Shown here: positions 1 through 63,326 of the stretch, in pieces | How the letters are laid out: every line of letters begins with the position of its first letter | Numbering within the stretch: the stretch's first letter is position 1 | Source: Lama guanicoe | Lineage: Eukaryota | Assembly: GCA_013239625.1 (NCBI GenBank) | Contig: MU053185.1 | Location: 62,001 to 125,326 of the forward strand | Reading direction: 5' to 3' | Length of the DNA stretch: 63,326 nucleotides | Notes under the pieces: model-generated | What the model saw: the letters and a program-made list of their open reading frames with translations, nothing else | Database searches by the model: none | Told to the model about the DNA's origin: nothing | Program-made: the position numbers and the translations under genes

Positions 1-1249
1 AGTTTACTTAAACTCACTTCCTAGTAGCAAGAGGAGACTGCTCTGTGCAGTTGGGTAGGAGAAACTTGGCCTTGCTGAAGGTTAGAACTGTGCCGAGAAA
101 GGGGGTGGGGTGTTACCGCGCTGCTACAGAATCATAACAGCTATTTCCTGCTGCTTCTCCCACTATGTGAAGCTGGGAGAGGCCTCAAGGAATTACATGA
201 CCCAGTGTCCTGGTTGCACCCCATGTTATTGAACAGGTGGCTGAGGTCACCAGGGGTAGTGCTGAGAGTCAGATCTGACTTGAATCCAGTTTCCACAGCA
301 TCTTGGGCAAGTAGTTTATATCCTGGACTTCAGTTTCCTCGTGTGGGAGATGATAAGACCAATCCTACCTCACAGCATTGCGAGGATTAGCGAGAATGCA
401 GGAAATCACCCAGTCTGGGGAGGACTCATCACATCTTTCACTTACTGTCTGGTGACAGAGCTGGGACTGGCTCCCTGATCACCTTTATTAACCGCTGCTC
501 ACTGTGGCCAGGCTCCCGAACCCCGGGCTTCTCGGAAAGCACTGCAGGAACTCTGCCCAAAGGCGTCCCGGGCCTGTATCTGGGGGCTGAAGCCATCTTC
601 CATCCCCACAGATGTCTCTAACAGGTTGTTCCAGGCCTTTCTGAGCCCACTTTGGTTGCTCCTTTCTCTCTGTGCCCGTTTCCAAAGGTGAAGAATTGCT
701 CAGGGGAGGAAGTGCTCGGTGCCTGGAGTGCTGGATGGTGTAGGGGACACAAACAGATCTGGGACTCACTCACTTCTATGGGTCTCACAGTCCACAAGGG
801 CAGACTGAAGGGTACAATCCCTGGACCATCTCCTTAGCTCTGCCACCACTTCTGGAACAGCATCCTCCTCTTCTGGGGAGCTGCCCCACACAAACACATC
901 CTCGGATTATGTGGTCCCAGGGGGAGCCCCCGTTCCTACAGGACCCACACCTCCCTCACCACAGCTGACCTGACCCGCCCCTGGCGCCTCCTGTTGTTGG
1001 CTTAAAGTCAGGCACCTGAGGACCAGGTGGAGTTTGTTCCCTGGCATTGAGGGAAACAGAGAACCTTATTTCTTGTGCTTCATGTGTTCTTGAGCGATTT
1101 CTCATTCCACTCTCCATGAAGGAAAATGGGAGCAGGACGGAAATATATTACTGATGACTTTAGCACAAGAAATAGAGCATGATGATTCAGCTCTGTCTAG
1201 ACTTTTTAACTTTGGGATCTGCATTTCCACCAAGAGGAAATGCTGTAAG
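1..1249 (+). repeat. Near-identical segmental duplicate of 44559-45807 (may extend beyond the window edge)
   Basis: Direct repeat at constant offset 44558; ORFs 205/488/652 recur identically at 44763/45046/45210; about 6 substitutions seen by eye, all after position ~930. Confidence 0.97.
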
Positions 1250-2159: not shown

Positions 2160-2845
2160 AAGGAAACCCATATTAGAGCACGTCTGAGATAACTGCAGAC
2201 CTGCTCAGCAGAAGAGAAACAGAACAGGACACAATCTACCTAGAAGAGGTATACAGAAGTCCTCCAATGTCAGAAAATGCCAAGATTTTGGCCTTTACTA
2301 TGGTCCATGTCTTACCTGCAAGCTTCAAATCGTGTGTCCTAAAGAGAGAAGACCATTCCCTAATGGACACACTCTGCCCTCCCATTTGGAGGAGAAGGCT
2401 ATTAGTGAAATGGACATCACAACTGTAGATCAGATCCATTCTAAGTACCTAGGCCAATCAAATGAGTCCTTTATTCTCAAATATGAATGAACAAATGTTG
2501 GCCAGATATTTGAGTAAAGTAAAAGAAGATCATAATGAACAAACAGAACTATTTCTGGAGGATTATATATATATACACACACACATACATATATATATGT
2601 ATGTGTGTATATATATAAATATATTTATATATTTGTATGTATATAGATATATAAATAAAATATAGGAAACAGAAAAGAACTTTACCAAAAAATCCATATT
2701 CACATTCTTGGAATTTTAAGGAAGACAGTGGGTTTACAAAATGAGAACAGAGTGCTAAAAAGGGAGCTATTTGTGAACTAAAGTCCTCAGAAAATATAGC
2801 AAAATAAAAAACTTAATAAATGCCTGATGCTCAGGTCAAAGTCGT
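2160..2845 (+). repeat. Diverged paralogous upstream flank of the ferritin-like gene (matches ~58900-59500 plus 60818-60846)
   Basis: Collinear blocks such as GAAATGGACATCACAACTGTAGAT and TGAACAAACAGAACTATTTCTGGAG occur in both units. Confidence 0.9.
2563..2655. repeat. Compound (TA)n/(CA)n microsatellite
   Basis: Seen directly; the paralogous position (~59311) has only a short A-rich tract. Confidence 0.9.
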
Positions 2846-2884
2846 CCTTCCTCACTCAGGCTGTGATGTAACTGTGTTTCTGCC

Positions 2885-3716
<832 letters not shown>

Positions 3717-4000
3717 GCCTGGACTGGAGTTCCCCGTGGTCACGGGGTGACTTCCCGAGGTCCCCCTGCCTGGCATGCATACGGCAATATTGCCCTTGCA
3801 AAAAAAAGTTCACTTAAAAATTTTATTTATGTTTTGTTGTTTCCAGTTTTGCCATTTCTTCCAGTAAAGTTATTGATGCCTATATAAATAAAGGTCTCTG
3901 ATTAATTTGTGTGTGCAAAACCCTAACCTGGGATTGGGCAGGGGTTAAAATAGTGGTCTTCACTGTATTTGAAATGTGGACCATTAATTCTGGGTAGCAG

Positions 4001-4222
4001 TTGGGGGCCTTGGAAGCCAGCATGGCAGAGTACCTCTTTGACAAACTCACCATGGGTGACAGTGATAATACAATTGAGTGTAGGGCTGGCTTCCCGATAG
4101 ACACAGGTGTGACTTCCTGTGGTCACCAATGCTAGGCATGCATGTTGCCCTTATGAAACATCCACATGTGATTTTTTTTTTACTTCAACTATATCATCTT
4201 ACAATAAAGCAACACGGTACCC
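4001..4222 (+). pseudogene. 5'-truncated ferritin heavy chain remnant (last ~25 codons plus 3' UTR), unit A
   Basis: Translates [23 protein letters not shown]; followed by a ferritin-type 3' UTR (GTGACTTCC..GGTCACC..GCATGCATG) and AATAAA at 4203. Confidence 0.88.
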
Positions 4223-4369
4223 CTCAAAATGTATCTCAATAGAAGAGCTGAGAAATATAAGATCTTAGATGAAGGTCAATTTGTGATATTGAATTTAAAG
4301 TAGAATAAATCCCTCTGACTGTTGAGTCAGTGATTCTGGCTGCTTTGAAGAATAGGGGTAGGGGTGGGG

Positions 4370-4830
4370 GGGAGAGTTAAAGCCAGGAGACCAGTTAGGA
4401 GACTCTGTAGCCGGTCCAGGTAAGAGACAATGGTGGTTGGACTGGAGTAGAGGCCGAAGAAATAGAGATGTAGACAAATTGTAGATGGATTTGGATCAAT
4501 CAACAAGATGTCTTTGTGGACCAGAGGTGAGGAATGAGATATAAAGAAAATAATCTAAATTAATCTAACCTGGGTTGATGGCAGTGCTATTTATTAATTT
4601 GGGGACTTCTGTCAGGGCACAACTGAAATGGAAGGGTGGGGAAGGCATGTCATGTAAAATCTGAGATGCCTATTAGACATCCAAGTGGAACTGTTCTGCA
4701 GGTAGTCAGAAAAATGAATCTGGAGCTCAGGTTTAGAAACATATATATGGGTGACTTTAGCCTATATAGGTGATGTTGAGGTCATGGGACTGGATGAGGC
4801 CACTGGAAAGAGAGTAGGGAGAGAGTATGG
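4370..4830. mobile_element. Degenerate L2-like LINE fragment
   Basis: L2-like phrases (GAGATGCCTATTAGACATCCAAGTGGA, GAATCTGGAGCTCAGG); first part paralogous to ~62600-62700. Confidence 0.55.
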
Positions 4831-44558: not shown

Positions 44559-45807
44559 AGTTTACTTAAACTCACTTCCTAGTAGCAAGAGGAGACTGCT
44601 CTGTGCAGTTGGGTAGGAGAAACTTGGCCTTGCTGAAGGTTAGAACTGTGCCGAGAAAGGGGGTGGGGTGTTACCGCGCTGCTACAGAATCATAACAGCT
44701 ATTTCCTGCTGCTTCTCCCACTATGTGAAGCTGGGAGAGGCCTCAAGGAATTACATGACCCAGTGTCCTGGTTGCACCCCATGTTATTGAACAGGTGGCT
44801 GAGGTCACCAGGGGTAGTGCTGAGAGTCAGATCTGACTTGAATCCAGTTTCCACAGCATCTTGGGCAAGTAGTTTATATCCTGGACTTCAGTTTCCTCGT
44901 GTGGGAGATGATAAGACCAATCCTACCTCACAGCATTGCGAGGATTAGCGAGAATGCAGGAAATCACCCAGTCTGGGGAGGACTCATCACATCTTTCACT
45001 TACTGTCTGGTGACAGAGCTGGGACTGGCTCCCTGATCACCTTTATTAACCGCTGCTCACTGTGGCCAGGCTCCCGAACCCCGGGCTTCTCGGAAAGCAC
45101 TGCAGGAACTCTGCCCAAAGGCGTCCCGGGCCTGTATCTGGGGGCTGAAGCCATCTTCCATCCCCACAGATGTCTCTAACAGGTTGTTCCAGGCCTTTCT
45201 GAGCCCACTTTGGTTGCTCCTTTCTCTCTGTGCCCGTTTCCAAAGGTGAAGAATTGCTCAGGGGAGGAAGTGCTCGGTGCCTGGAGTGCTGGATGGTGTA
45301 GGGGACACAAACAGATCTGGGACTCACTCACTTCTATGGGTCTCACAGTCCACAAGGGCAGACTGAAGGGTACAATCCCTGGACCATCTCCTTAGCTCTG
45401 CCACCACTTCTGGAACAGCATCCTCCTCTTCTGGGGAGCTGCCCCACACAAACACATCCTCGGATTATGTGGTCCCAGGGGGAGCCCCTGTTCCTACAGG
45501 ACCCACACCTCCCTCACCACAGCTGACTTGACCCGCCCCTGGTGCCTCCTGTTGTTGGCTTAAAGTCAGGCACCTGAGGACTAGGTGGAGTTTGTTCCCT
45601 GGCATTGAGGGAAACAGAGAACCTTATTTCTTGTGCTTCATGTGTTCTTGAGCGATTTCTCATTCCACTCTCCATGAAGGAAAATGGGAGCAGGACGGAA
45701 ATATATTACTGATGACTTTAGCACAAGAAATAGAGCATGATGATTCAGCTCTGTCTAGACTTTTGAACTTTGGGATCTGCATTTCCACCAAGAGGAAATA
45801 CTGTAAG
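44559..45807 (+). repeat. Near-identical segmental duplicate of 1-1249
   Basis: Direct alignment, offset 44558. Confidence 0.97.
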
Positions 45808-56700: not shown

Positions 56701-58660
56701 ATGACACCTTAGACCAGTTGAACTTAATAGATATCTACAAGACATTCTATCCAAAAACAGCAGAATAGACATTCTTTTCAAGTATACATGAGCAGTCTCC
56801 AGGATAGAATATGTGCTAGGCCACAACACAAGTCTTGACAAATTTAAGAGGATAGAGATTATATTAAGCATTTTTTCCAACCACAAAGGTACAAAACTAG
56901 GAATCAATCACAGGAAGAAAAATGGGAAAAACACAAACACATAGAAGCTGAACAACCATGCTATGAAAAACCCAGTGGATCAAGGAAGAAATCAAAGAGG
57001 ACATCAGAAAATATCTTGAGACAAATGATAATGGAAACACAATTTTCCAAAATCTCTGGGAAACAACAAAAGCAGTTTTAAGAGGAAACTGTAGCAATAT
57101 GGGCCTACCTCAAGAAACCAGAAAAATATCAAACAAGCAACCTAACCTACTATCTGAAGGAATTAGAAAAAGAGAAATAAGCCCAAAGTCAGCAGAAGGA
57201 AGGAAATAATAAATCTCAGAGAGGAAATAAAAGAGAGAGCCAAAAAACAACAGAAAAGATCGATGAAACCAAGAGCTATTTTTTCAAAAAGGTAAACAAA
57301 AATGATAATCCTTTACCCATGCTGATCAAGAAAAAAGAGAGAGGACCTAAAAGCTTTTGCACAGCAAAGGAATCCATTAGCAAAACAAAAAGATAACCAA
57401 GTGAATGAGAGAAAACATTTTCAAATGATATAAATGATAAGGGGTTAATATGCAAAATATGTAAACAGCTTATACAACTCAATATCAAAAAAACAAAAAA
57501 ACCTGATTGGGTAAAAGACCTGACTAGACATTTTTCCAAAGAAGACATACAGATGGCCAACAGGCACGTGAAAAGATGCTCAATATCACTAATTATCAGA
57601 GAAACACAAATCAAAGCCACTTGAGGACATAGAATACAAACTTGTAGTTGCCAGTGGGGAGAGGGGTGGGAAGGGATAAACTGGGCGTTCAAGATTTGCA
57701 GACACTGACTAGTATATATAAAATAAATAAACAAGTTTATACTGCATAGCACAGGGAAATATATTCAATATCTTGTAGGAGCTCACAGTGAAAAAGAATA
57801 TGAAAATGAATTTATGTATATTCATGTATGACTAAAGAATTCTGCTGTACACCAGAAATTGACACAACATAGTAAATTGACTATACCTCAATTAAAAAAA
57901 AACACTTGAGATATCATCTCACACCTGTCAGAATGGCAGTCATCAAAACGACCATAAACAGCAAGTATTGGCAAGGATATGGAGAAATGGGAACCCTTGT
58001 ACACTGTTGCTGGGAATGTAAATTGGTGCAGCCCCTATGGTAAACAGTATGGAGGTTCCTCAAAAAATGAAAAAATAGAACTACCATATGATCAAGCAAT
58101 TCCACTTCTGGGAATATAGTCAAAGAAAACAGATGAATGGCAGAAAGGCCACAAACACACCGTGGAATATTATTCAGCCATAAAAAATGAAATTTTCCCA
58201 TTTGCAACAACACGGATGGACTTGGAGGGAATCATGCTTCATGAAATAAGTCAGACAGAGAAAGACAAACATTGCATTTTATCACGTATATGTAGAATCT
58301 AAAAAATAAAACAAAGGAATGAATATAGCAAAGCAGAGACAGATTTACAGATTTAGAGAACAAACTAGTGGTTAACAGATTCCACTAGTAGGGAAAGAGA
58401 GGGAAAAGGAGAGGGAAGGGGAAAGGGAAAGGAGTAGGGGCAAGACAGGGATAGGGGACTAAGAAGTACAAACTACCATGTATAAAATAAATAAGCTATA
58501 AGGATGTATTGTACAGCACAAGGAATAGAGCCAATATTTCATGGTAACTTTAAATGCAGTATAATCTATAAAAATATTGAATTATTATGTTGTACACCTG
58601 AAACTAACATAGCATTGTAAATCAACTATACCTCAATTTTTTTAATGAATAAAAATAAAA
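53701..58660 (+). mobile_element. L1 with 5' UTR, ORF1 and endonuclease remnants, a large internal ORF2 (RT) deletion near 57348, and 3' UTR; nested short L1 tail at ~57626-57899
   Basis: 5' AAGATGGC start motif; ORF1 (KERILKATRKKQQISYKG, LYPARLSF); EN (CWPQETQF, VAILLSDKIDFK, VNIYVPN); abrupt jump to AAAAGCTTTTGCACAGCAAAGG; nested insert with TSD CACTTGAG. Confidence 0.9.
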
Positions 58661-59501
58661 CAATGCACCTGCAGTAGAAAGCCAAGCACTCTCAAAGCTC
58701 AAAGAGAGTCAGTGAAATCAAAGCACTGCAGAAGGTTCTGGGTGGGCTGTGAGATTGAAGAGCTACTCTCTGAACAACAGTTCTGTTTGCCGCTACCGTG
58801 CTCTGACCCTATCCCAATCTTTCTTACACTGGACAAAGCACAGTGGCATTTGATCTGCTTTAATCTCCCCAAACTACATTCCAAAGACAGTGACCAAGAA
58901 AGGAACCCAAATTAGAGCAGATCTGGGACAAGTGGAGACCTGCATAACAGAACGGAAACAAAACAGGACAGAAGGACATATCTGCCTAGAAGAGAGATCT
59001 ACCAAAGTCTTCCGATGTCTGAGAAATGCCATGCTTTTGGCAACTGGGAGGGCCCCTATACTACCAGAAAGTTTCCTGCGATTACTACCAAAGGAGAAGA
59101 CCACTCCACAACTGACATACACTACCCTCCCATACAGAAGAGGCCCCTATTAATGAAATGGACATCACAACTGTAGATGAGATCCATTCTAATTAACTAG
59201 GCTGATCAAATGAGTCCTTTACTCCCAAATATGAATGGACAAATGTTTGCCAGATATTTGAGGAAAGTGGAAGAGAAGATCATGATGAACAAACAGAACT
59301 ATTTCTGGAGAAAAAAATAAATATAATACCGGAAACAGAAGAGAACTTCACCAAAAAATCCAAATTTATATTCTCAGAATTTTAAGGAAGACGATGGGCT
59401 TATGAAATGAGAACAGGGTGCTAAAAAAGGGAACAATTAGAGAATAAGAGAAAGTCCTTGGAAAATAGGAACAGTAATGCAAAATTGAAAATTAATAGAT
59501 G

Positions 59502-60817
59502 CCAAACGGGCCCAACAGTGGACTCTGAGAGACCAGCGGCCCTCGGAACCGTCAGCCCTCGCTCTCAACCATCCACCCACCGCTCTCGGAACCACGGCGG
59601 CAGTGGCGGCAGCCTCGGCGGGAACTGCTCATCATCGGCTGGTATGTTTTCTGTGTGCTGCTGCAGGTGTTCCTGGAATGCTGCATTTACTGGGTAGGAT
59701 TCGCTTTTTGAAATCCTCCAAGGACATAGTCCATTGCGAGAAGTGAGGTGTTCAGGTGCTCCCTGAAGAAGCTGACATACACTGTGTCGAGAAACGGGGG
59801 GCCAAGTGCTGGGAAAGCACAACCACCGGGCCCCCAGTTGAGGCTCCAGCCCCTACCCCTGGGCGGCCATGTCACCAGGTGCTCCTGTAAAATTCCACCA
59901 GCATGGGAGCCAATGCTACACAGGAACGGTGGTCGCCTCTGCTCTCTCGCCAGAGGAGCAGTTGCCAAGATCAGTGCCCCTGGAGAAGCAGAACCAACAA
60001 TGACGACAATACAGATCCCTTCCTTACCCTTTGCACCCGTCCCACTGCGGGTGACATTCAAGGAGGAGGGGGGAATGGAAGGAGAAGACCCCTGAGATCT
60101 GGGCACAGGCAATGCATTCTGATCTGGACCAAGTTGGGACAGCGCCACCCCAGCCCCGCAGTGAAGGCCATGCCAGCAGGCCCCACCATAGAGATCCAGA
60201 CAACCACACCAGCCAGCAAGAATGGACATTCCAACATCACCAGCCAAAGCCCAGAATCTCAGTGCGGCGAACAAGGCGACAACTGCGAGCCAGTGGGTCG
60301 GGACTTGAGGGCGACTGCAAAGGAAGAGTTTTAAGAAACAGAGCGGGGCCTTCTCACTGACCCTTGCCTACCACATAGGCTTCCAGCCTTTCTGCCTCTG
60401 CTCCCTCCATTCCTCTTTCCCCCTCACGCCTGTCCAAAACAAATGTGTCGCTCAACTTGGAACTATTCAACAAGAAAATGAATTCCATCTTTACCAAAAC
60501 ACCTTCTCCGAGCCCCCAGCCCTTCACTGATCTTGCTTTACCCAGGTCTTAAGCAATTGTGGTCAGTGTTATGGTAATCACTAATTGTAATGCTTGTATA
60601 AGTGTGCATTAGTTGTGTCTTCCACCTAGACTATAAGCTCTTGGAAAACAGGGATCGCCTCAACAAAAAATTAAAAAAGTACCTCCCCCATCTCGCACAG
60701 TGTCCTAGTCCTGCCAGGCAGTGGAGATACACCCGAAATAATAGTAATAATGAAAATAATAGTAATAATGAAAATAATAATGAAAATAGCAATAATAATA
60801 ACAAATAAAATAAAATG
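59502..60817 (+). pseudogene. NNAT: Full-length processed pseudogene of neuronatin (alpha isoform); CDS remnant 59594-59841
   Basis: Conceptual translation (T)[78 protein letters not shown] matches NNAT-alpha as recalled; no introns; 5' UTR, ~0.9-kb 3' UTR, decayed A tail 60735-60817, TSD core TAATAGATG (59493-59501, 60818-60826); ATG>ACG, two frameshifts, two stops. Confidence 0.93.
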
Positions 60818-61080
60818 TAATAGATGACAGCTGCTCAGCTCAAGTCTCTGCGCCTCACCCAGACTTTGATGGAACCTGGGACACAGGGCTCTGTGCTATG
60901 CCCTCCTTTCCCCATTACCGCCCCAACCCCACCCAGTGTAACAGAACTGGAACCTGCCCTCCCCTCCCCCTCCCAAACCCGGGTATGGGGACCACATTCC
61001 AGTCCATACCAGAGCTGCCGCCCTGGCCGGAGTCACCTGCCTCAGGTCACCCTAACAGCCCACCCTGAGGACACTCTTGA

Positions 61081-61623
<543 letters not shown>

Positions 61624-62243
61624 NNNNNNNNNNNNNNNNNNNNNNNNNNNNNNNNNNNNNNNNNNNNNNNNNNNNNNNNNNNNNNNNNNNNNNNNNNNNN
61701 NNNNNNNNNNNNNNNNNNNNNNNNNNNNNNNNNNNAAGGCAATTTTCCCCTGCAAAAAAAAAAAAAAAAGTTCACTGAAGTTTTTCTTCTTTCATTGTTA
61801 CCATTTCTTCCAATAAAGTTATTGGTTCTTAAATAAATAAAGGTCTCTGGTTGATTCACGTGTGCACACGTCTCACTTTGTAAGTTTAAAACAGGTATCC
61901 AGGAGTCTCTCCAGCACCCATGCCCCATCCACATGCAGCTCAGGGTCTCCACAGATGGACGGAGAAGGTACTGCCTGGGACCATGGAAAATACAAAAGCA
62001 GTATTCCCCTAATGAACAAGGAGTGAGTGGGTGGGGGAGGGGTCATCTGCGGTCCTAGTCTACGTGACACCTGTGTGTGGTAATATTATACTTAAACACA
62101 GTATGGAATTTATAATACTGGTGAACTCTTAAGAAGTGAAGAGTGGGATTGGACAGGAAGTAAAATAAAGGGTGTCTTCAACTTGACCTGAAAACGTTTA
62201 GCTCATTAAGAAATGTTAGCACGTGTTGCTTCTGGGCAGCAGC

Positions 62244-62455
62244 CTGGGGGTCCTAGAAGCAGGTATGCAGAGTCCCTCCTTGACAGTCTCACCCCTACCA
62301 ACAGGGATAATGGTAACTGAGCCTTAGCTGACGTTCCCATAGATGCAGGAGTGACTTCCCGGGTCACCCTGCCAGTTATGCATATTGCCCTTACAAAACA
62401 TCCAAAGATGTGTATTTTTCCTTCCATTGTACCCTTTCTTCCACTAAACGAAAAG
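62244..62455 (+). pseudogene. 5'-truncated ferritin heavy chain remnant, unit B
   Basis: LGVLEAGM/ESLLDSLTPTNRDNGN* plus ferritin-type 3' UTR (GTGACTTCCCGGGTCACC); same left junction as the 4001 remnant. Confidence 0.8.
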
Positions 62456-62960
62456 AATACCACAAAAACCTCAAACTACCTCATCAGAAAGGCTGAAAAA
62501 TTAAAGGTCATGGCAAAGATCAAATTTGTGCTATTGAATATAAAGTAGAATAAATCTCCCTGAATGTAAAACCCAGGATTCTCATTGCTTTGAAGAATGT
62601 CAGGGGAGAGGGAGAGTCGAGGCTGGGAGACAAGTTAGGAGATACTGGAGCAGGTCCGGAGACACAATGGTGGCTTCACCTGTGGTGGCTATAGATGTAT
62701 GTATATATGAAAGATCTGAGACAAACTCAGAGAGAGGAAAGGTCCTCAAAGCAGGCAGAGAACGACGTATTGAACAAACAACAAGTTTGGCAAAGAAGAG
62801 TAAAGGGACAATTGAAGTTTCTGGAGACTGAACTCCAAAGGCCATGATTCTCACTTTTAAGAAAATGTTGAAGTGTAGTCTTGGGGAAATATGGAAGGAA
62901 ATTACTGCTTAGCTAAACTTACTTGTATTTTACTACATACTTTAAGCAATCTGGTGGCTA

Positions 62961-62963
<3 letters not shown>

Positions 62964-62994
<31 letters not shown>
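62964..62994. repeat. (TG)n microsatellite
   Basis: Seen directly. Confidence 0.95.
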
Positions 62995-62996
<2 letters not shown>

Positions 62997-63124
62997 ACAT
63001 CTCTCTCACAGATACAAGACGCACAGGGCAAGCCTATATTGGTGAGCATTTCAAACAGTCCATTGACTGACGATCCTTCTTCCTTTCCTGCTTTGGAGAA
63101 CCAGTTTTCTGTTTGACTCTATTA

Positions 63125-63326
63125 ACCTCAGTTTGCCTGGGTTCACATACCAGTCTAGCCACACATCTTGGGTAGACCTGGGTAAGGTATTTAATTTCTC
63201 TGTGCCTCAGTTTCCTCACATTTAAAATAAGAATAAAGGCGTCAACTCCACTGGGTCACTGTGCCGATTAAAGGAGTTAATGTACGTAAATCTCTAAGGA
63301 GAGTGCCTGGCACAGTGGCAGCACCT
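63125..63326 (+). mobile_element. MIR SINE
   Basis: CCTGGGTTCA..TCTCTGTGCCTCAGTTTCCTCA..GTGCCTGGCACA core. Confidence 0.75.

Follow-up and report, generated by a model that had tools for sequence, protein, structure and literature searches.

RESULTS AND DISCUSSION

An intronless neuronatin copy upstream of a ferritin-like frame

The window, by which we mean the whole 63,326-nucleotide stretch of Lama guanicoe DNA analyzed here, forms the final 63 kb of contig C304 (125,326 bases). Toward its right end it contains a sequence derived from neuronatin (NNAT), followed on the same strand by a ferritin-like frame (copy B). A related ferritin unit that lacks the insert (unit A, with ferritin copy A) lies close to the left end. 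An earlier note, made from the letters of the window alone, had described the neuronatin-like sequence as an intronless retrocopy of the alpha form of the NNAT messenger RNA (mRNA), complete with both untranslated regions (UTRs). Window positions 59502-60735 were used as the retrocopy query against the genome assembly to which the window belongs (2.05 Gb, 55,231 contigs), and all genomic comparisons reported below were made within this assembly. Window positions 59200-62200 and 2400-4200 were inspected directly. The insertion comprises the following parts.

59488..59504, plus strand: 5′ target-site duplication in its extended form, AAAATTAATAGATGCCA, with the core TAATAGATG at 59493-59501; the target occurs only once in unit A and in the paralogue at C7387:195411
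59505..59509, plus strand: the five bases AACGG between the 5′ duplication and the start of the clean alignment, as placed by the spliced-parent alignment
59510..59666, plus strand: exon-1-derived part (5′ UTR and first 24 codons), 91% identical to parent exon 1
59667..59747, plus strand: exon-2-derived part of 81 nt, which marks the alpha form; 95% identical to parent exon 2, with precise junctions
59748..60733, plus strand: exon-3-derived part (last coding portion plus complete 3′ UTR), 86% identical to parent exon 3; the BLAST match reaches 60739
60734..60817, plus strand: poly(A) tail that has decayed to an (AATAAT)n-like array of 84 nt, 53 of which are A (63%), with periods of 6, 9, 18, and 30
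60812..60829, plus strand: 3′ target-site duplication in its extended form, AAAATGTAATAGATGACA, with the core TAATAGATG at 60818-60826

The query matched a three-piece gene on contig C55221 (query positions 9-167 at 91% identity, 164-248 at 95%, and 245-1225 at 86%), and a BLAST run gave the same pieces. The introns of this parental gene measure approximately 0.9 kb and 0.2 kb, have GT..AG ends, and enclose a middle exon of 81 nt. The three parental pieces abut exactly in the window, at 59666/59667 and 59747/59748, with all parental introns precisely gone. When the spliced parent was aligned globally to the window, the match ran from end to end over 1218 aligned bases and showed 89.2% identity (Kimura two-parameter distance [K2P], 0.117), with 89 transitions, 42 transversions, and 12 indel events. 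Clean homology covers window positions 59510-60739 by BLAST, and the insert itself starts at about 59505; the five bases AACGG could be untemplated or could stem from a diverged 5′ end of the cDNA. Clean alignment starts at 59510, whose parental counterpart lies about 31 nt downstream of ATACTTAAG, presumably the TATA-like element of the parent; the retrocopy is therefore full length to within a few bases of the likely transcription start. Judged by sequence comparison, these alignments confirmed the earlier proposal that this stretch is an intronless, full-length copy of the three-exon alpha neuronatin mRNA.

The read-through translation of the retrocopy (P0001) pointed to the same identity. 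In a protein search, all 35 candidates had E values of ≤0.001 (best, 6.5e-26), and 29 of them were named neuronatin or NNAT in NCBI or UniRef, the others being unnamed (4 candidates) or called hypothetical or uncharacterized (2 candidates). Each of the 35 bears a precomputed assignment to PF27808. The local Pfam copy, from which the neuronatin model is absent, returned 0 families for P0001. The spliced open reading frame (ORF) of the parent is intact and 81 amino acids long; 79 of the 81 residues are identical to those of a named neuronatin, and the parental protein equals a dromedary entry except for a 7-residue insertion in the latter. An 87-amino-acid ORF that matches the Pfam family BC10/BLCAP (PF06726; E value, 2.4e-27) is encoded on the other strand, approximately 2 kb upstream of exon 1 of the parent. 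Going by this ORF, the parent is located in the known BLCAP/NNAT neighborhood, the relation seen being one of adjacency. We take this arrangement around the parent on C55221 to be the known one; a reference in PMC3217256 carries it in its title. By eye, two primers from a pig NNAT promoter study (PMC3427331) closely resemble the upstream sequence of the parent. At the 3′ end of the parent, the sole canonical AATAAA lies about 66 nt before the switch from homology to tail, which is unusually far for a poly(A) signal; the same hexamer reads ATTAAA in the retrocopy.

Hallmarks of the insertion and two unfilled sites

The earlier note had further claimed a target-site duplication, a decayed A tail, an orientation on the strand of copy B about 320 bp upstream of it, and a preserved pre-insertion state in unit A. 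Each of these claims held. The 9-bp core TAATAGATG is present exactly at both junctions; the window contains 4 copies of it where 0.72 would be expected, a count not reached in any of 100 shuffles. If one mismatch and one indel are allowed, the duplication can be extended to 17 bp on the 5′ side and 18 bp on the 3′ side, and the extended form begins at an A-run, as an L1-type nick would predict. The tail begins where the homology stops (approximately position 60733). The distance from the last base of the 3′ duplication core (60826) to the ferritin frame at 61147 is 320 bp, and the retrocopy and copy B share one strand. Unit A shows the same site without the insert, upstream of its own ferritin frame.

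2807..2843, plus strand: unfilled pre-insertion site in ferritin unit A; the target is single, and the flanks are continuous on both sides
3171..3716, plus strand: ferritin-like copy A, an intact ORF of 181 codons with ATG (PF00210; E value, 1.5e-27)

A second unfilled site was found in the paralogue at C7387:195411, which also has the target once. Unit A differs from unit B in a TA/CA-rich microsatellite block (2560-2650) that is missing at the homologous place in unit B (59317-59325).

The neuronatin frame is disabled and has drifted

Compared to the parental frame, the retrocopy carries all of the disablements that had been listed for it, namely, a lost start codon, two frameshifts, and two stops. 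The former start has changed from ATG to ACG (59594-59596). An extra G within 59620-59622, in the exon-1 part, causes the first +1 frameshift, and an extra base near 59796-59803, in the exon-3 part, causes the second. Both stops are located in the exon-2 part (CGA to TGA at 59709-59711 and CAG to TAG at 59727-59729). An intact alpha ORF of about 81 codons is present in the parent but not in the window copy, and the neuronatin frame of the retrocopy contains no ORF of 60 amino acids or more. Since the frame is disabled, the retrocopy is a pseudogene and not a functional member of the gene family. Divergence from the parent is similar in the 5′ UTR (K2P, 0.103), the coding region (0.097), and the 3′ UTR (0.125), which fits drift without constraint. 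Of the 51 CpGs of the parent, 27 are kept in the retrocopy and 15 are now TG or CA, a pattern that would be expected for methylated, unconstrained sequence of such an age. A 195-amino-acid antisense ORF runs across the retrocopy (59690-60274, minus strand); Pfam scans of this and three other long ORFs of the window returned 0 families each, and all four were treated as chance ORFs.

A second copy of the insertion and the order of events

The same retrocopy was found at C7387:129177-130410, within a scaffold of 10.4 Mb, together with a ferritin frame that we call copy B′. Window positions 58040-63326 match C7387:126538-133017, and nothing collinear is found further upstream. Over the 2920 ungapped bases from 58704 to 61623, B and B′ differ by 41 mismatches, which are very unevenly distributed: 2 in 58704-60265, 18 in 60266-60457, 1 in 60458-61055, and 20 in 61056-61623. 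The junctions, the tail, and all five disablements are identical, with 0 differences inside 59434-60265. Therefore, a single insertion occurred that was later copied at the DNA level. The existence of at least two genomic copies of the retrocopy goes beyond the earlier note, as does the missing ATG of copy B that is described below. Conversion among the ferritin paralogues would fit the divergent patch over the ferritin region (61056-61623). A 212-base contig, C19643, was considered as a third independent copy and rejected; it is identical to B′ at 211 of 212 positions (99.5%) and is probably a stray piece of the B′ locus.

The noncoding flanks are approximately 77% identical between units A and B and approximately 75% identical between unit B and C7387:195411, compared to 89% between retrocopy and parent. 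These lower flank identities, along with the empty sites, place the insertion after both duplications, in agreement with what had been proposed for units A and B. In the order of events that we suggest, the ferritin units first duplicated, a neuronatin retrocopy then entered the B lineage, and the B unit with its retrocopy was finally duplicated again to give B and B′. Mammalian neutral rates are about 1-2.2e-9 per site per year. With such assumed, uncalibrated rates, the K2P of 0.117 would put the age of the retrocopy at roughly 30-90 million years.

Public sequencing runs were compared by the words that they share with window positions 59300-61623. Among the runs listed, 14 of 24, from four organism codes and seven studies, contain half or more of the words sampled. 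Insert and tail account for 56% of this interval; with word shares of 0.59-0.72, some of the insert would therefore be present under all four organism codes. RNA runs (five recorded as such and one guessed to be RNA) share only 0.05-0.20 of the words, which is no evidence either way on transcription.

The ferritin family that hosts the insertion

The insertion lies upstream of a ferritin-like copy with the following features.

60830..61146, plus strand: eroded upstream region of copy B, with deletions and CpG loss compared to its paralogues (10 CpGs; observed/expected ratio, 0.35)
61147..61623, plus strand: ferritin-like copy B, open for 159 codons as far as an assembly gap (61624-61735) and without an ATG at the position usual for the family (PF00210; E value, 8.8e-23)

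Seven intronless, uninterrupted ferritin-domain copies that are at least 81% identical to copy A were found, five on C7387 and two on C304. All 4 matches to the DAX1-type NR_Repeat are located on C7387 at 5.656 Mb, on the scaffold that carries B′ and four other copies; C304 is unplaced. The human FTHL17 family is located near NR0B1 on the X chromosome. The NR_Repeat matches on C7387 thus suggest an Xp21-like neighborhood; human FTHL17 is placed at Xp21.1 in PMC7760355. Compared to a solved H-ferritin (7u5l_A), copy A has Gln-Leu in place of the ferroxidase Glu-Glu pair (Glu61/Glu62) and shows additional exchanges of Tyr to Cys and His to Trp. Loss of Glu62 function is what defines FTHL17 biochemically, according to PMC7760355. 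The relatives of the ferritin ORF are mostly named ferritin heavy chain or ferritin heavy chain-like, and the name FTHL17 appears on 1 of the 120 matches listed; the best named relatives among these matches are from Vicugna pacos (87%) and Camelus ferus (83%). On these grounds, it appears reasonable to call the copies FTHL17-like, a fair label that stops short of proven orthology to human FTHL17. An exact look-up of three of the ferritin ORFs in a protein collection found 0 of 3. Synonymous distances (dS) among the copies are 0.01-0.10, and ratios of nonsynonymous to synonymous change (dN/dS) range from 0.5 to 2.5. Low dS next to 23% divergence of the A/B flanks, combined with these ratios, agrees with recurrent conversion and with a family under weak constraint.

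Several further ferritin-like sequences were observed. A few hundred bases downstream of each ferritin unit in the window lie fragments (3988-4436 and 62230-62673) that are about 70% identical to each other and read like the C-terminal end of another H-ferritin copy (approximately 4020-4080 in unit A). Two tandem copies on the minus strand at C7387:193822-195950, 1.6 kb apart, have identical coding sequences, and both read ATG ACG at the start. The copy at C7387:2152571-2153110 has a coding sequence closest to B/B′; it has an ATG, its frame is cut five codons short by a premature TAA, its upstream region is unrelated beyond about 65 bp, and it contains no neuronatin insert. A ferritin ORF at C55230:16466820-16467347, also without introns, shows the Glu-Glu-x-x-His motif intact and is preceded by an in-frame ATG 60 codons upstream; its matches named “ferritin, mitochondrial” mark it as probably the mitochondrial ferritin gene.

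Copy B has lost its start codon and most of its upstream CpGs

The start position reads AAG ACG in B and B′, compared to ATG ACG, GTG ATG, or ATG ATG in the five other copies. The sole in-frame ATG of B/B′ is at codon +36; in the five others, an ATG stands at codon 0 or −1. The 330-bp upstream regions of B and B′ contain 10-12 CpGs (observed/expected ratio, 0.35-0.42), compared to 17-31 (0.66-0.83) in the insert-free copies. Of the 28 CpG columns common to at least two of four insert-free paralogues, 3 survive in B and 4 in B′; TG or CA now stands at nine columns in B and at eight in B′, and eight columns are missing through deletion. When each insert-free copy was scored reciprocally as a control, it retained 10-13 of 16-24 columns. 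The alignment also revealed two deletions in the GC-rich proximal part of the upstream region of B/B′. Because its start codon is missing and most of the upstream CpG island has been lost, copy B is probably silenced or dying. Given that B and B′ represent a single lineage, the insertion may either have caused this decay or have landed in an already decaying unit.

Origin of the insertion and alternative explanations

From the combined evidence, we consider it highly probable that the insert is an L1-type processed pseudogene of neuronatin upstream of a probably decaying FTHL17-like copy. The template would have been a mature, polyadenylated neuronatin-alpha mRNA from the gene on C55221 that adjoins BLCAP. 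It would have been reverse transcribed at a nicked, A-rich target and integrated in the manner of LINE-1, presumably with LINE-1 as the enzyme source (target-primed reverse transcription). An FTHL17-like ferritin copy, one of an intronless family of the X type, lies about 320 bp downstream of the landing site. The retrocopy arrived without a promoter of its own, has drifted as neutral, presumably germline-methylated DNA, and is unable to encode neuronatin; it probably has no function. Like processed pseudogenes made by LINE-1, the window copy lacks introns, spans approximately the whole distance between transcription start and poly(A) site, has a disabled frame and an A-rich tail, and shows a 9- to 17-bp duplication at an A-rich nick in a locus unrelated to the parent. 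We see no difference in kind from such pseudogenes; what is particular is the imprinted parent, the landing site in a ferritin unit, and the later duplication together with that unit.

Several observations weigh against this reading. LINE-1 nicks follow the consensus TT/AAAA, and the nick site on the top strand here, TG/AAAATT at 59486-59493, is one base off. The 192-bp patch at 60266-60457, which derives from the neuronatin 3′ UTR, differs between B and B′ by 9.4%, compared to approximately 0.1% on either side. The patch may be an unconverted remnant of an older duplication, may stem from a third, unassembled copy, or may be a consensus error. The parental gene was considered as a conversion donor for this patch and rejected; identity to the parent in this stretch is only 84.8% for B and 86.7% for B′, and informative sites point both ways (8 versus 4). 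Finally, the ferritin frame is open over all 181 codons in B′ and over the 159 codons up to the gap in B, and its coding CpGs are kept. In a copy long dead, an open frame like that of B′ would be surprising unless the paralogues keep refreshing it by gene conversion, and low dS next to high flank divergence suggests that such conversion takes place. With family dN/dS values of 0.5-2.5, the open frame in any case says little either way.

The best-surviving alternative is that the retrocopy altered the regulation of copy B by displacing elements, by attracting methylation, or by giving rise to an upstream or chimeric noncoding read-through transcript. The insert is located only 320 bp before the ferritin frame on the same strand; B and B′, the sole carriers of the insert, are also the sole two of the seven copies with an eroded CpG island and no ATG; and mouse Fthl17 expression is reported to depend on methylation of the 5′ upstream region (PMC5312872). 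Against this stand the facts that B and B′ amount to one event in one lineage and that a processed copy has no promoter. Furthermore, with the ATG lost, a chimeric RNA would not give a normal ferritin, and the losses of the ATG and CpGs and the upstream deletions in B/B′ indicate decay rather than new regulation. We therefore judge a regulatory role to be improbable. Still less probable, to a degree that makes it speculative, is an extended form of the same idea, in which the retrocopy would have brought along CpG-rich, methylation-prone sequence from the differentially methylated region of an imprinted gene, triggered silencing and promoter decay of the ferritin unit or a chimeric noncoding RNA in the germ line or early embryo, and then been recopied with the unit. 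If true, this would be a natural case of an imprinted-gene retrocopy reprogramming a member of another family that is regulated by parent of origin.

An expressed retrogene that still makes a neuronatin-like peptide is hardly credible. The N-terminal hydrophobic segment of P0001 is well conserved and the translation is 72% identical to a named neuronatin, but the lost start and the two frameshifts and two stops within 81 codons leave no ORF of 60 amino acids or more in frame, and coding divergence equals UTR divergence. A canonical neuronatin product from the retrocopy is refuted by these disablements. An assembly artifact or cDNA contamination, which the small size of the gapped C304 and its end 2.5 kb after the retrocopy might suggest, has next to no chance of being correct given the 11% divergence from the genome's own gene, the decayed tail and duplicated target, the same junctions inside the 10.4-Mb scaffold C7387, and the words shared with the public runs described above.

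Relation to known neuronatin and FTHL17 loci

Like NNAT at the BLCAP locus, the retrocopy has recognizable counterparts of three exons, both UTRs, and the 81-codon frame. Unlike NNAT there, it has no introns, no promoter, and no intact ORF, and it lies in a different chromosome context. The background of the earlier note, that Nnat is imprinted and that mouse Fthl17 genes are X-linked, with expression coming from the paternal X, is in print. PMC3217256 lists Nnat among small imprinted genes believed to have entered introns by retrotransposition in the ancestor of eutherians. Mouse Fthl17 is described in PMC2887969 as a seven-gene cluster on the X chromosome whose paternal X copy is expressed from the two-cell stage onward. 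FTHL17 and Fthl17 are presented in PMC7760355 and PMC2887969 as ferritin H-like genes of the germ cells and the early embryo that lack introns and ferroxidase function. The host units resemble these genes in being intronless, multicopy ferritin ORFs with a replaced ferroxidase Glu-Glu pair on a scaffold that carries an NR_Repeat gene. They differ from them in that copies B and B′ have no start codon and that the relatives are mostly named ferritin heavy chain or ferritin heavy chain-like. No link was found between the imprinting of the neuronatin family and that of the FTHL17 family, and coincidence is the simplest reading.

Mammalian genomes contain thousands of processed pseudogenes, and the retrocopy described here is an ordinary though unusually well-preserved one that matters little in itself. 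In the literature searched, outside of which subscription journals and retrocopy databases lie, there is no mention of a neuronatin retrocopy, pseudogene, or retrogene, and the sole phrase match was a primer name. The retrocopy nevertheless has several uses. With two empty sites and a later codup­lication with its host unit, it constitutes a clean, datable presence/absence marker for ordering the duplications of X-type ferritin-like genes in the camelid lineage. Since a heritable retrocopy needs a transcript in the germ line or early embryo, full-length alpha neuronatin mRNA would have been present there at the time of insertion. Finally, B/B′ (insert, eroded CpG island, no ATG) and their five sisters (no insert, CpG rich, ATG) form a natural comparison for promoter erosion driven by an insertion.

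Other features of the window

C304 ends 2.5 kb past the retrocopy and contains gaps. Window positions 1-1249 and 44559-45807 form a direct repeat, 44.5 kb apart, that is 99.5% identical over 1249 bases (6 mismatches, 0 gaps); it may be either a very recent duplication or assembly redundancy at the window start. An interspersed repeat of about 0.6 kb occurs in several copies that are 72-86% identical and lie in both orientations, at 13.2-14.0, 15.0-15.6, 41.5-42.1, and 57.3-58.4 kb. One of its copies marks the left edge (approximately 58040) of the segment common to C304 and C7387.

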